64,000 bases of DNA from an uncultured Chloroflexia bacterium (GCA_963752475.1 CAVVYR010000006.1:352001-416000), one strand, 5' to 3'. Numbered from the stretch's first letter, positions 830-5,082 are shown. A program made the numbers and translations. The notes: generated by a model not told the origin, from the sequence alone.

Positions 830-1069
830 TCAGGCCGCTTCGTAGGTCGCGAGGACGGTGCCTACCACCGCGTCCGCGCCGGCCTCGACGAGGATCTCGG
901 TCAGGCGTCCCGCGGCCGGCATCTCCAGGTCGACGTTGGCCTTCTCGGTCTCGATCTCGGCGATGACCTCACCCTCCATGACCGTGTCGCCGACAGCCTT
1001 GAGCCAGGCGCTCACGCGGGCTTCATCGGTCTCGGCACCGAGGTTGGGCATCTTGATGGGGAGGCTCAC
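830..1069 (-). CDS. Stand-alone biotin/lipoyl-attachment domain protein (about 79 aa)
   Basis: IKMPNLG...EIETEKANVDL lipoyl motif; GTG start at 1069 formed at the IS junction, with SD-like AGGAAGAGGG at 1077-1086 inside the IS end. Confidence 0.85.
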   Translation of the reverse strand: MSLPIKMPNLGAETDEARVSAWLKAVGDTVMEGEVIAEIETEKANVDLEMPAAGRLTEILVEAGADAVVGTVLATYEAA

Positions 1070-1089
1070 TGGTGCACCCTCTTCCTGTC

Positions 1090-1300
1090 GGTAGTCGCAG
1101 ATCGACTGCCGATGCACCCGAGGTGCCGTCGGGTCACTGCCCCGCTCGCTCGAACCTTCGAGGTCCAGCATGAGTTCCGCAGGGCCCGGCGGTCATCCGG
1201 GACGCCGTGACCGTCGACAGGGCTGTGCGCCATGGCCATCACCGGCCGGGAGCGCCGATCAGTGAGCTGACAGGCAGATGCGTCCCGGCACCGAGATGCG
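1090..1300 (+). ncRNA. Putative IS110 bridge RNA (boundaries approximate)
   Basis: GCATGAG 1168-1174 is the reverse complement of the target right flank; ACAGGGCT 1217-1224 equals the donor left flank; CAGTGAG 1260-1266 is the reverse complement of the donor right flank. Confidence 0.65.
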
Positions 1301-1338
1301 GGTGCCTCCCCACTGGGATCAGCAGCGAGGAGGCTGAC

Positions 1339-2607
1339 ATGCAGTCTGCCAGTATCACCCCGAGTCGGGGCTCGTCCGACCAGCCCGTCAGCGTCGCCGT
1401 CACCGGTGGCGTGGACTGGGCCAGCGCCGATCATGCCGTGGCCGTCGTCGACGACGATGGCCGCCAGCTCGCCCGCGAGCGCGTCGAGCACACCGCCGCG
1501 GGCCTGCGGGCGATGGTGCGGTTCCTGGCCGATCATGGCGTGGCCGAGGTCGCCATCGAGCGTGGCGACGGCCCGGTGGTCGAGGCCCTGCTCGACGCCG
1601 GGCTGACCGTCGTCGTCATCAGCCCCAACCAGCTCAAGGGCCTCCGTTCGCGCTACGGCTCGGCCGGCAACAAGGACGACCGCTTCGACGCCTTCGTGCT
1701 CGCCGACACCCTGCGCACCGACCGGGCCCGGCTTCGCCCGCTGACCCAGGACACCGAGGCCACGCGGACCCTGCGCGCCACCGTGCGGGCCCGTCGCGAC
1801 CTGGTCAGGCACCGCGTCGCGGTGTGCAACCAGCTTCGCGCCCACCTGCAGGCCACCTTCCCCGGCGTGGTCGGCCTGTTCGCAGAGCTGGACTCGCCGA
1901 TCAGCCTGGCCTTCCTGGCCCGCTTCGACTCCCAGGCACGTGCCGACTGGCTCTCCCCCGGGCGGCTGGCGGCCTGGCTGGCCAGCGTCGGCTACAGCGG
2001 CCGCAAGGACCCCGCCGACCTCCATGCCCGACTGCAGGCCGCACCCCGGGGCCCGGTCGGACCCGACGGTGCCGCCCGGGCCCATGTCACCCGCGCCCTG
2101 CTCAGCGTGCTCGACGGCCTGGTCGAGCAGATCGGGACCCTCGAGGCGCAGATCACCGAGCAGCTCGCCCTTCACGCCGACGCCCACATCTTCCGGTCCC
2201 TGCCCCGGAGCGGCACCGTCCGCGCCGCCCGGCTGCTCGCCGAGATCGGCGACGTCCGCGCCCGCTTCCCCGACGCCGCCTCCCTGGCCTGCCTGGCCGG
2301 CGTCGCGCCCTCGACCAGACAGTCCGGCAAGCACCGAGCCGTCACGTTCCGCTGGGCGGTCGACAAGGAGCTCCGCGACGCGGTCTGCGACTTCGCCGGC
2401 GACTCCCGACGCGCCAACCCCTGGGCCGCGAAGATCTATGACGACGCCATCGCCCGGGGCAAGGACCACCCCCACGCGACCCGCATCCTGGCCCGTGCCT
2501 GGCTCGGCGTGATCTGGCGCTGCTGGCAGGATGACGCCGCCTACGAACCCGCCCGACACCACGCCCTCCAGGCCATGCAGGACACCGCCATGGCGGCCCA
2601 GGGTTGA
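1339..2607 (+). CDS. IS110 transposase/recombinase
   Basis: DEDD RuvC-like motifs (GVDWA, AIER, KDDRFDA) and C-terminal AGVAPSTRQSGK; RBS GAGGAGG before ATG 1339. Confidence 0.95.
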   Translation: MQSASITPSRGSSDQPVSVAVTGGVDWASADHAVAVVDDDGRQLARERVEHTAAGLRAMVRFLADHGVAEVAIERGDGPVVEALLDAGLTVVVISPNQLKGLRSRYGSAGNKDDRFDAFVLADTLRTDRARLRPLTQDTEATRTLRATVRARRDLVRHRVAVCNQLRAHLQATFPGVVGLFAELDSPISLAFLARFDSQARADWLSPGRLAAWLASVGYSGRKDPADLHARLQAAPRGPVGPDGAARAHVTRALLSVLDGLVEQIGTLEAQITEQLALHADAHIFRSLPRSGTVRAARLLAEIGDVRARFPDAASLACLAGVAPSTRQSGKHRAVTFRWAVDKELRDAVCDFAGDSRRANPWAAKIYDDAIARGKDHPHATRILARAWLGVIWRCWQDDAAYEPARHHALQAMQDTAMAAQG

Positions 2608-2618
2608 CACAGGGCTAC

Positions 2619-4784
2619 TCATGCGTCGTCCTTTCCGGCCGCGGTCATGATGGCGGCCTCGATGTCGGCGTCCTGGATGTGCACGAAGTCCTCGAGCGGC
2701 TTGCTCACCGGCGAGTAGGCATCGAGGCCGGTCACGCGCAAGGGCGCGCTGCGCAGGAGCGCGTGCAGGTCGGGCTGCAGGTAGTCCAGGATGCGCCCGC
2801 CCATCGAGAGCGTGCGCTGGGCATCCTCGGCGATGACGAGCGCCCCCGTGCGAGCGACCGAATCCAGCACGGCCGCGCGCGGGAAGCTGGGCTCGTCGAG
2901 CCAGCGCGGGTCGAGGACCTCGGCTTCGACGCCGCGGTCGGCCAGCGTGGCGGTCACCTCTGCCACACGCGTGGCCGCGTAGCCCCAGGTCAGGACGGTC
3001 ACATCGCGCCCTGATCGCACCAGGCGTGCCTTCCCGAACTCGACCACGTGGTCGAAGCCGGCGCCCGGGAGCACACCCGTGATCTTGGCCAGGCGATGGT
3101 CGTCGATGATGAGCACCGGGTCACGACTGAGCACGGCCGCGTTCCAGCAGCCGACGTAGTCGGCCGGGGTCGTGGGTGCGGCCACGCGCCAGCCGGGATA
3201 GGACGTGAACAGGCCGGCCGGGTCGCAGGAGTGCTGCGGTCCGTAGCCGCGCCCCCGGGCGATCTGCGTGCGCGCGATGACGGGCACCTCGTGGTCGCCG
3301 CCATACATGTAGCGGCTCTTGGCGATGTGGTTGAAGAGCTGGTCGGTGGCCTCGAGTACGAAGTCGGGGTACATGAACTCGATGATCGGATGCATGCCCG
3401 CGAGCGCCGCTCCGAGGGCTGCGCCACTGAAGCCGTTCTCGCAGATGGGCGTCGAGAGGAGCTGCTGCGGGCGCGAGGCCACGGCTGACCGGGTCATGCC
3501 CACCGTGCCGCCGCCGAGGTGGCCGACCTCCTCGCCCAGGTAGATGGCCTCTGGGTCACGCTCGAGCGTGCGACCGATGACGCCCTGCGCGGCCTCGGCG
3601 TAGGTGACCGGCGCAGCCTCAGGGTCCGGCGTCGCGTCGAGGCGCTCGTAAGGGAGGTCCGGGAGGCCCGGGCCGAGCATGCCGCGATGGGCGTCCTCGA
3701 CCGGCGGGTAGAGCTCGGGCGGGATGGCTGGTCCGTCGTCGGTCTCGACCGTCAGTGCCGCCACGCAGCGGGCCACGAGCGCGTTGGCCAGGCCCTGCAC
3801 GTGCTGCACTTGCTCGGCACTGAGCAGCTCGGCTTCGATCACGCCGCGAGGCCAGGCGACCGCCGGGTCGCGATCCTTCCACTCGCGCTCCTCGTCCTTG
3901 CTGCGGTACTTGAAGGCCGAGCCGGGGAGGGGACCGTTCTGGTGGTAGTAGCGGTAGGTCACGGCTTCGACGAAGACCGGCCCGTGGGTGACCGCATGCT
4001 CGCGTGCTTGTGCCATCGCCTCGTATACCGCCACCGGGTCCATGCCGTCGACCACGAGCGCGGGCATGTCGTAGCCCGCGGCGCGCTTGGCCAGGCGCGT
4101 GAAGCCGGCCGTCTCCTGCACCGTGGTAGCGACCGAGTACTGGTTGTTCTCCAGCAGCAGGATGAGCGGCAGATCCCAGGCCCGCGCCAGTGCCGCCGCT
4201 TCGTGGAAGGCACCGATCTGGCTGGCACCGTCGCCGAACGAAGCCACGCCCACGTCACCCGTCCCGCGCAGCTTCGAGGCCAGGGCATAGCCGCCGGCGG
4301 GCGGGATGCCACCACCCACGATAGCCGTGGTCATGACACCGCCTTCGCGGTCCCACAGGTGCATCGAGCCGCCGCGGCCGTGGCAGAGCCCTTGTTCGAG
4401 GCCCATGATCTCGGCCATCGTGCGCTGCACGGGTTCGGCCATGGCCTCGGTCACCGTCTCGGCCGTGAAGGGGTCGAAGTCATCCGGGGTAGCCGAGAGC
4501 AGCAGCTTGGCCACCACGTCGTGATGGGCGCGATGGGTCGAGGTCAGCCAGTCACTCGGGCGCAAGGCCAGTGCCGCGCCCGTGGCCGTGGCCTCCTGGC
4601 CGATGCTCGAGTGCAGCGGTCCGTGCACCAGGCCCGCGTTGTCGAGCAGCCACTTCTCGAAGCGACGGATGGTCCCGATGCTGAGGATGGCCAGCCCCAG
4701 GCGGCGCTTGGGCGTGCCGGCGAGCACGTCCGTGGACAGCTCGTAGCGGGTGAGGCCGGGCGTCGTCGTCGGCTCTGCGGTCAT
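2619..4784 (-). CDS. Fused E1 alpha/beta TPP-dependent 2-oxoacid/acetoin dehydrogenase-like protein
   Basis: HSSIGQEA, GRGGSMH, GDGA...ENNQY TPP motif; beta half with TPICENG, EFMYPDF, GPQHS. Confidence 0.92.
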   Translation of the reverse strand: MTAEPTTTPGLTRYELSTDVLAGTPKRRLGLAILSIGTIRRFEKWLLDNAGLVHGPLHSSIGQEATATGAALALRPSDWLTSTHRAHHDVVAKLLLSATPDDFDPFTAETVTEAMAEPVQRTMAEIMGLEQGLCHGRGGSMHLWDREGGVMTTAIVGGGIPPAGGYALASKLRGTGDVGVASFGDGASQIGAFHEAAALARAWDLPLILLLENNQYSVATTVQETAGFTRLAKRAAGYDMPALVVDGMDPVAVYEAMAQAREHAVTHGPVFVEAVTYRYYHQNGPLPGSAFKYRSKDEEREWKDRDPAVAWPRGVIEAELLSAEQVQHVQGLANALVARCVAALTVETDDGPAIPPELYPPVEDAHRGMLGPGLPDLPYERLDATPDPEAAPVTYAEAAQGVIGRTLERDPEAIYLGEEVGHLGGGTVGMTRSAVASRPQQLLSTPICENGFSGAALGAALAGMHPIIEFMYPDFVLEATDQLFNHIAKSRYMYGGDHEVPVIARTQIARGRGYGPQHSCDPAGLFTSYPGWRVAAPTTPADYVGCWNAAVLSRDPVLIIDDHRLAKITGVLPGAGFDHVVEFGKARLVRSGRDVTVLTWGYAATRVAEVTATLADRGVEAEVLDPRWLDEPSFPRAAVLDSVARTGALVIAEDAQRTLSMGGRILDYLQPDLHALLRSAPLRVTGLDAYSPVSKPLEDFVHIQDADIEAAIMTAAGKDDA

Positions 4785-4803: not shown

Positions 4804-5082
4804 TCAGGCGATGGTCTCGGGGATCTCGTCGGGCATGGCCTCGCCGGGCGCGAGGATGACCGCGATCACGGTGTTGTTGGGCACGATGTCGCCCTCGCCG
4901 TGGACGATCTTCGCGAGCACGCCGGCCGCGGTCGCCTCCAGCTCCACGGTGGCCTTGTCGGTCTCGACCTCCACGACGGGCTGACCCTTGCTGACGCTGT
5001 CACCCTCGGACACGAGCCAGGAGACGATCTCGCCCTCCTCCTGGTTCATGCCCAGCTTCGGCAGTGGGAAGAACGTGGCCAT
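4804..5082 (-). CDS. Stand-alone lipoyl domain protein
   Basis: LPKLG...EVETDKAT lipoyl-lysine motif, 92 aa, no catalytic E2 domain. Confidence 0.9.
   Translation of the reverse strand: MATFFPLPKLGMNQEEGEIVSWLVSEGDSVSKGQPVVEVETDKATVELEATAAGVLAKIVHGEGDIVPNNTVIAVILAPGEAMPDEIPETIA

Follow-up and report, generated by a model that had tools for sequence, protein, structure and literature searches.

What happens to the translation of an operon when an insertion sequence (IS) lands in the overlap between two of its genes is the question raised by a locus in a 64,000-nucleotide stretch of DNA, hereafter the window, from an uncultured Chloroflexia bacterium (GCA_963752475.1 CAVVYR010000006.1:352001-416000). 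There, a 1.5-kb element of the IS110 family separates the gene coding for a fused E1 dehydrogenase from the gene coding for a lipoyl/biotinyl-domain protein, and the strand opposite its transposase gene forms a stop-free frame of 518 codons that opens at a host ATG and crosses the whole element (Table 1). The comparison with 135 complete relatives reported below argues that selection keeps this antisense strand free of stops and in phase, and does not preserve a protein product made from it.

A prior reading of the window made from the sequence alone (the sequence-only reading) had reconstructed the empty site as an E1 stop codon overlapping the start codon of the lipoyl-protein gene. This reconstruction was borne out by a genome of the same genus (G014), whose orthologous locus (L087) is element-free and reads ...ggaaaggacgacgcATGAGCACACCCATCAAGATG, with identical upstream sequence and the ATGA overlap, then ATGAGC. 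The architecture proposed for the occupied site is likewise present in the window: the host ATG opens the 518-codon antisense open reading frame (ORF), which runs through the 270-bp non-coding end, the TGA that closes it overlaps a newly created GTG, and 7 nt before this GTG the end of the IS supplies the Shine-Dalgarno (SD)-like AGGAAGAGGG, which may be incidental since it overlaps the 5′ region of the bridge RNA. The downstream protein, said to be unchanged, is an intact 79-aa Biotin_lipoyl protein, and its orthologues begin at the same residue as the window copy. The two CTCA repeats that bound the insertion are spaced 1,553 bp, and 1553 mod 3 = 2.

The transposase matches the Pfam families DEDD_Tnp_IS110 (PF01548, 2e-36) and Transposase_20 (PF02371, 1.2e-18), corresponding to an N-terminal DEDD/RuvC-like domain and a C-terminal Tnp domain, respectively. 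Inspection, made with no repeat-finder, showed that neither of the element ends, CTGGTGCACC... and ...CAGGGCTA, is an inverted copy of the other. With its recombinase domains, its lack of terminal inverted repeats together with a core at both junctions, and its structured left-end RNA, the element is a bridge recombinase system of the IS110 family (IS110 group). The host genome (38 contigs, GC content 68%) contains two full copies (100% identity over the query, the second scoring slightly lower) and one truncated relic. In all three, the right flank reads CTCA followed by TGC and, after 6-7 nt, the complement of a ribosome-binding site (RBS). The second full copy occupies the stop/start overlap of an ABC-transporter ATPase gene with the gene coding for its ABC-2 permease. 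The relic, L003 (G000:C6:339362-340414, about 12.6 kb before the window start), has lost its first 495 bases and carries a 1-nt deletion near its right end, and its antisense frame is broken by many stops, the first at codons 26, 61 and 149.

An open antisense frame is by itself a weak sign of function in such DNA, as the sequence-only reading had cautioned. Because the frame is in codon register with the transposase gene, each of its stops implies a TTA, CTA or TCA codon on the sense strand, and these codons are rare. Among 539 host genes of 380-480 codons, 103 (19%) have no in-register antisense stop, and the 270-nt end was open in the register frame in 21% of 5,000 dinucleotide shuffles, giving a joint chance of about 3-4% for this one copy. 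Since this chance is not negligible, the case for selection rests on the relatives.

We therefore drew on two independent sets of relatives. From species-representative genomes, the best 80 of 456 loci (67-93% protein identity, mostly Actinomycetota) yielded 64 loci with both ends, which together with the two host-genome copies made 66 complete elements. From metagenome contigs, the best 80 of 511 loci yielded 69. The ends are conserved in these 135 elements, which fall into 79 clusters at 90% protein identity and are thus not near-copies of one sequence. At the family right end, the transposase stop lies inside TTGACA, which is followed by CACAGGGCT(A/T)CTCA; at the left end, CTCA precedes CTGGTGCACC..., and this CTCA is found in both full copies of the host genome and, like the initial C of the element, in nearly all relatives. 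By a rule fixed beforehand, elements with T or C after the right CTCA, i.e. abutting a minus-strand ATG or GTG, were classed as START, and all others as OTHER.

The antisense frame was open end to end in 49 of 55 START elements of the genome set compared with 0 of 11 OTHER elements, and in 56 of 64 compared with 0 of 5 in the metagenome set. Every open frame ends exactly at the TGA of the left CTCA (49/49 and 56/56). In the genome set, the open START frames span 507-544 codons with an element length mod 3 of 2, whereas OTHER elements have 3-5 stops in the transposase part and mixed length phases. When the two sets were scored by the actual codon, the frame was open in 105 of 113 elements abutting ATG (90) or GTG (23) and in none of the 22 others; the T/C rule had mislabelled six elements with deviant right ends (L028, L029, L118, L119, L121 and L134), which abut neither ATG nor GTG and are all closed. 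The clusters separate in the same way, with 71 START-only clusters, 61 of which have an open member, and 8 OTHER-only clusters, none of which has one. At GC content of 0.675 or less, the frame was open in 11 of 13 START and 0 of 15 OTHER elements. The openness extends to the non-coding end, where the register antisense frame has no stop in 50 of 55 START elements (one or two in the remaining five) and in all 49 elements that are open end to end, whereas 1-4 stops are typical of the remaining two antisense frames and 1-6 of the three sense frames. A collection of annotated plasmids contained a single full-length match, L178 of Nonomuraea gerenzanensis, which abuts CTG and has one antisense stop; the only name found in that collection was the generic 'IS110 family transposase', L178 itself being without annotation.

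Both the length of the elements and their codon usage carry the mark of this constraint. The non-coding end, measured from the first base of the element to the start codon of the transposase gene, is a multiple of 3 in 113 of 119 START elements compared with 4 of 16 OTHER elements. The multiples of 3 found in START elements comprise 15 distinct lengths between 243 and 306 nt, and at least 39 length changes map to the transposase tree (FastTree). In L017, L019, L025, L027 and L037, 43 nt of the left end are duplicated in tandem (CTGGTGCACC... occurs twice) and two 1-nt insertions are present further in, for a total of 45 nt, and the frame stays open. The guide block is read in phase 0 in 42 open elements and in phase 1 in 63, the donor-guide block is split 56/48 between phases, and at least seven phase patterns occur among the 105 open elements. 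Local frame shifts thus occur and are always compensated in open elements. On the coding side, the 55 START transposases contain 7 TTA, CTA or TCA codons in 22,770 codons, compared with 65 expected from their own flanking host genes, a usage about tenfold below that of the host, and all seven are confined to two elements with deviant right ends. OTHER transposases contain 29 in 2,861 codons. The earlier expectations that a length mod 3 of 2 would be conserved and that antisense stops would be depleted therefore both hold, the latter against a host-codon null and against the other frames alike.

The SD-like sequence had also been put forward as something that the element provides. This is correct for the window copy; as a family trait it holds only in part, an SD-like motif at a spacing of 8-10 nt before the recreated GTG being found in 76 of 119 START and 0 of 16 OTHER elements. 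In most relatives, the last five antisense codons read ATG GTG CAC CAG TGA, with AAGGA directly before the ATG (e.g. L023:56-80), such that a five-codon mini-ORF also ends at the TGA/GTG overlap. The window copy, which reads AGG GTG CAC CAG TGA, is without the ATG of this mini-ORF.

The left end of the element that has to stay open in antisense is also the bridge-RNA gene. RNAalifold of 30 relatives gave 57 consensus pairs, 24 of them with compensatory changes; a single-sequence fold of the left end (z -2.7) was set aside for this alignment fold because it buried the guides in pairs. An Rfam scan of positions 900-2800 returned only a chance match (E 0.86), and no curated family covers the bridge RNA. 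The right target guide is complementary to the top strand CTCATGC at the right junction, and it thus spells the host ATG and TGA. Complementarity between the three bases next to CTCA in the flank and the alignment columns at window positions 1170, 1169 and 1168 holds in 94-98% of 63-64 elements (mutual information of 1.1-1.4 bits), and guide and flank match in 56 of 69 elements of the metagenome set. For the family as a whole, the right target guide reads NNN(A/G)TGAG and the specified target is approximately GCTCA+YNN. The probable left target guide, GCTC, is invariant and hence untestable by covariation. No position covarying with the left flank emerged from a scan for such partners, and the left target would seem to comprise no more than the invariant GCTCA.

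OTHER elements carry a different base at the A/G position of the guide, and many share the repeated target CTCA-GAGGYGGGCA. On the tree they are nested among START elements, with openness, phase and the SD-like tract lost, a state that fits decay after a change of target. L044, L047, L059, L066, L067, L071, L072, L075 and L085, and L136-L141 of the metagenome set, adjoin a repeated motif, either CTCA or CTCG followed by GAGGYGGGCA(A/C)AA, or CTCA-AAGGCTGG..., which is probably a dispersed host repeat. As a separate observation, related copies in environmental RNA libraries (contigs of runs X1, X2 and X4) carry C in place of A at guide position 1170, the base pairing with the T of CAT; such a guide would aim at CTCAGGC and thus miss the start codon.

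To characterise the insertion points, we assigned sites to classes by GC-content phase, the third codon position being GC-rich, at 68 distinct START sites flanked on either side by 240 nt or more; a simple SD scan of the host flanks detected the motif in only part of the START sites, and GC phase and Pfam were used instead. At 20 of the 68 sites, the core TGA is the stop codon of an upstream gene and the ATG or GTG the start codon of a downstream one, and at 10 more a downstream gene lies in frame after an upstream region of weak signal. Counting three others, a downstream gene follows in the ATG/GTG frame at 33 of 68 sites, compared with about 14% of baseline sites, and the core TGA is the stop of an upstream gene at 29. 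Of 8,248 [AG]TGAGC sites in the host genome, 1.7% are stop/start overlaps and 2.9% have TGA as upstream stop; 9.4% of its 339 GCATGAGC sites are overlaps. The enrichment of stop/start overlaps at START sites is thus about 17-fold over the [AG]TGAGC baseline, and antisense-intragenic sites, with opposite-strand coding on both sides, make up 2 of 68 compared with 37% of the baseline. Pfam analysis of five junctions revealed functional partners with full-length domains in 10 of 10 ORFs: ABC ATPase and ABC-2 permease, SnoaL and SDR, Hen1 and a kinase-phosphatase, a histidine kinase and a response regulator, and CrcB and CrcB. In the checked junctions, the downstream domain begins 4-21 residues from the GTG. 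The data thus bear out the expectation that targets would be enriched for stop/start overlaps, and the related idea that the element seeks translation starts needs revision: a TGA stop (within TGAGC) after A or G is written in the guide, whereas start codons as such are not the constant target.

These observations can be assembled into a single scheme. The guide, here GCATGAG, would direct insertion in one orientation into NN(A/G)TGAGC, in which the TGA is a stop codon that often overlaps the ATG or GTG of the next gene of the operon. Recombination duplicates the 4-bp core TGAG, and the upstream gene retains its stop. The host start codon, served by its own RBS or by coupling from upstream, then opens the antisense strand of the element, and the second copy of TGA, placed after the terminal G of the element, recreates a GTGA overlap before an unchanged downstream gene. 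Ribosomes starting at the host ATG would cross the 1.5-kb element as far as the duplicated TGA, stop there and begin anew at the GTG that overlaps it. No long untranslated stretch would be left on the operon transcript, and hence neither Rho-dependent polarity nor Rho-dependent decay would be expected; the passage of ribosomes and the restored coupling would together render an insertion between operon partners tolerable. From these sequence comparisons we infer that the frame is translated and that its translation would prevent polarity, and we consider it probable that ribosomes are relayed through the element in this way, with operon coupling restored and Rho-dependent polarity avoided. With somewhat less assurance, we also favor the broader proposal that a whole clade of bridge-RNA transposons has evolved translational transparency, with a guide aimed at the TGA of stop/start overlaps, a core duplication by which the overlap is rebuilt, and every base, those of the structured bridge-RNA gene included, kept stop-free and in phase in antisense as a frame that otherwise has no meaning and along which host ribosomes would bring the operon message across the foreign DNA.

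Several observations weigh against this scheme. The frame is broken in 8 of the 113 elements that abut ATG or GTG. Only 20 of 68 sites are demonstrable stop/start overlaps, 15 cannot be classified by GC phase, which is itself a heuristic, and at 5 the TGA is an upstream stop while the ATG or GTG is out of the frame of the next gene; the site baseline, moreover, comes from a single genome, that of the host. The enrichment at junctions may reflect survival after insertion instead of targeting. No SD-like motif precedes the recreated GTG in 43 of 119 START elements, and the family-consensus spacing of 10 nt is at the long end. The two full host-genome copies are probably recent, since they are near-identical, and long-term tolerance cannot be read from them. 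The link between retargeting and loss of the frame rests on two well-supported independent changes (four in all), too few for a sign test. Finally, 11 RNA runs contain parts of the stretch, and the contigs of four of them are unstranded and derive from related copies 95-99% alike; none of the contigs of these four runs bridges a host-element junction, which leaves them silent either way on read-through and translation.

Translation of the antisense strand could instead serve the element itself, read-through antisense RNA silencing the copy or tying transposition to host activity, with non-polarity as a side effect. Host transcription does run antisense to the transposase gene in every junction checked, and the orientation is fixed. 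An integrated copy would also be without a complete promoter of its own if the right-end TTGACA needs the joined left end, which across the joined ends offers, 18 nt from TTGACA, only CACCCT/CACCAT (NANNNT) as a -10 candidate. Such a benefit is possible and would not be exclusive of the relay, yet it leaves unexplained both the recreated GTGA overlap, with a frame that ends at the duplicated TGA in every open element of either set, and the enrichment at intact operon-partner junctions. We regard it as unlikely to be the explanation.

A second alternative is that the element has a genuine gene in its antisense frame, coding for a host-expression-dependent ('hed'-type) protein that serves transposition or its control and for whose sake the frame is kept open. 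The frame is under selection, the IS900 literature names hed as a gene (PMC8141618, in the portion of that text available to us), and the first and last residues of the antisense peptide are conserved (e.g. C-terminal ...RMVHQ), though over conserved element ends. The pattern of conservation, however, is not that of a protein. Different open elements read identical conserved nucleotides in two or more phases, and because of these phase switches the approximately 90 C-terminal residues opposite the non-coding end differ wholesale among elements. Codon-position entropies of the antisense frame in the non-coding end (0.50/0.34/0.25) are the opposite of a coding pattern, and no coding periodicity was found there. 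Within the transposase gene, synonymous sites vary freely, and variability is highest at the third positions, which are the antisense first positions (0.89 bit overall and 0.97 bit at invariant four-fold columns). Conservation of the antisense translation falls far short of that of the transposase, with 57% identity compared with 74% over the same region. No Pfam family matched the 518-codon antisense translation. A protein-coding role thus appears improbable. Chance, whereby the register frame is often open in high-GC DNA and relatives inherit this openness, draws on the appreciable single-copy and host-gene frequencies given above, but it is very hard to reconcile with 105 of 113 open frames against 0 of 22, the tenfold codon avoidance relative to host flanks, at least 14-39 length changes, all of them in threes, with compensated frameshifts, and a result that holds at matched GC and in an independent metagenome collection.

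Table 1. Features of the IS110-family element and of its insertion site, in window coordinates.
Feature	Position	Strand	Remarks
IS110-family insertion sequence	1069..2621	+	1,553 bp with one core copy; boundary ambiguous within the 4-bp repeat
Core CTCA, left copy	1065..1068	.	TGAG on gene strand; contains the TGA closing the antisense frame
Core CTCA, right copy	2618..2621	.	Contains the E1 stop TGA (2621..2619)
Bridge-RNA gene (non-coding left end, 270 nt)	1069..1338	+	5′ stem-loop and two stem-loops with internal loops
GCTC, probable left target guide	1144..1147	+	5′ side of first internal loop; identical to G-CTC(A) of target top strand
GCATGAG, right target guide	1168..1174	+	Complementary to target top strand CTCATGC (2618-2624)
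ACAGGGCT, left donor guide	1217..1224	+	5′ side of second internal loop; identical to right-end top strand (2609-2616)
CAGTGAG, right donor guide	1260..1266	+	3′ side of second internal loop; complementary to CTCA+CTG (1065-1071)
Transposase/recombinase gene, 422 aa	1339..2607	+	GAGGAGG 5 nt before start
TTGACA, -35-like box at right end	2603..2608	+	Overlaps transposase stop; kept in relatives
Antisense frame, 518 codons, stop-free	1066..2622	-	Host ATG to duplicated TGA at 1068..1066; in codon register with transposase
Host start ATG, formerly of the lipoyl-protein gene	2620..2622	-	Now opens the antisense frame; overlaps E1 stop
Host Shine-Dalgarno-like AAGGA	2629..2633	-	6 nt before ATG; identical at the empty site of the congener
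Recreated GTG of the lipoyl-protein gene	1067..1069	-	G is the first base of the element, TG belongs to the core copy; overlaps TGA
SD-like AGGAAGAGGG from element end	1077..1086	-	7 nt before recreated GTG
Fused E1 dehydrogenase (alpha+beta), 721 aa, intact	2619..4784	-	Pfam E1_dh, Transket_pyr, Transketolase_C; ends GAC GCA TGA
Lipoyl/biotinyl-domain protein, 79 aa, intact	830..1069	-	Biotin_lipoyl PF00364, 5e-19; GTG AGC CTC CCC ATC AAG ATG

In the surroundings of the element, the E1 gene has a further lipoyl-domain ORF directly upstream of it (window 4804-5082, minus strand). Contig C16 of the host assembly carries an element-free, 91%-identical copy of the downstream lipoyl gene (G000:C16:4731-4964), next to an E1-like gene that ends in TAA 10 nt before the ATG, with no overlap. 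This copy may belong to a paralogous cluster or to a second strain in the assembly, whose contamination is estimated at 5.8%. Among the relatives, L025, L037, L064 and L065 are mycobacterial members of the clade. L025 and L027 have identical transposase proteins on contigs labelled Mycobacterium sp. and Ramlibacter sp. (a betaproteobacterium), respectively, while the contig of L063 is labelled Alphaproteobacteria and that of L006 Chloroflexia. The labels of L027, L063 and L006, which lie outside Actinomycetota, may stem from binning errors or from transfer beyond that phylum.

If ribosomes are indeed relayed through these elements, a function would be at hand for the antisense ORFs of IS110 elements, known since the 1990s and still listed without one, and IS900-type hed ORFs could be explained as relay frames and not as genes. 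A transposon would then have been selected for compatibility with operons, its cost being lowered by being read through and not by avoiding genes. That the guide of a natural bridge RNA spells out a start/stop codon pair is also relevant to the choice of safe sites by these recombinases. A structured RNA gene under the added constraint of remaining an open frame in antisense is a rare case. For annotation, the antisense ORF of about 500 codons should not be named as a protein family, and the downstream gene should be started at the recreated GTG. The literature searched, which comprised open texts and left Doran et al. 1997 outside, yielded no published description of this element design.

Some parts of the design have familiar counterparts. 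ATGA and GTGA overlaps in bacterial operons serve translational coupling by termination-reinitiation; the element keeps one such overlap upstream and recreates a GTGA downstream, and differs from an ordinary coupled pair by the 518-codon spacer frame, of unconserved sequence, that lies between the coupled genes. Engineered non-polar cassettes, such as aphA-3 with a downstream SD sequence and start codon, are likewise inserted within an operon and hand ribosomes to the downstream gene. These cassettes stop translation at their entry and restart it at their exit, whereas the window element would apparently be translated from end to end, on the strand that does not carry its own genes.

Among bridge recombinases, IS621 and other IS110 elements are described, in the part of PMC11208160 available to us, as coding for a bridge RNA in the non-coding left end, with a 5′ stem-loop and two internal loops. 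According to the same text, their left and right target guides (LTG and RTG) recognise the bottom-left and top-right strands of the target by base pairing, and their left and right donor guides (LDG and RDG) those of the donor, in each case including the core, and a -35 box at the right end takes part in a promoter that is reconstituted upon circle formation. The window element shares this left-end RNA architecture, the guide pairing scheme and the right-end -35 box, and differs from that description in its core, which is 4 bp (CTCA) instead of a CT dinucleotide. It specifies only about 8 target bases (GCTCA plus 3). Unlike that of IS621, its natural target is the stop/start overlap of genes, and the complement of its RNA gene must stay an open frame.

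The closest counterpart is IS900 of Mycobacterium avium subsp. paratuberculosis, which inserts between an RBS and a start codon. Its antisense hed ORF, invoked as a precedent by the sequence-only reading, is a real one: the accessible part of PMC8141618 describes it as a complementary-strand ORF that spans the entire element, has neither an RBS nor a start of its own, and is without known function. The target given in that text contains CATG together with an RBS-like tract (motif CATGNNNNNNTCTCCTT), and insertions inside coding sequences are rare. By description, and not by sequence, the two systems are thus alike in belonging to the IS110 family, in an antisense ORF that covers the whole element without its own start or RBS, and in orientation-specific insertion at translation-initiation signals. 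They differ in that the window clade inserts 3′ of (A/G)TGAG, inside or after the start codon, such that the host start opens the frame, and in that duplication of the core supplies both the stop of this frame and the GTGA overlap for the next gene. The start motif given in the portion of PMC8141618 available is also unlike the CTGGTGCACC of the window clade, for which there is, in addition, comparative evidence that openness and not the product is selected. The principle is therefore shared with IS900 hed; what is new here lies in the ends, the insertion point, the duplicated TGA with its recreated GTGA, and the conservation of a frame rather than of its product.

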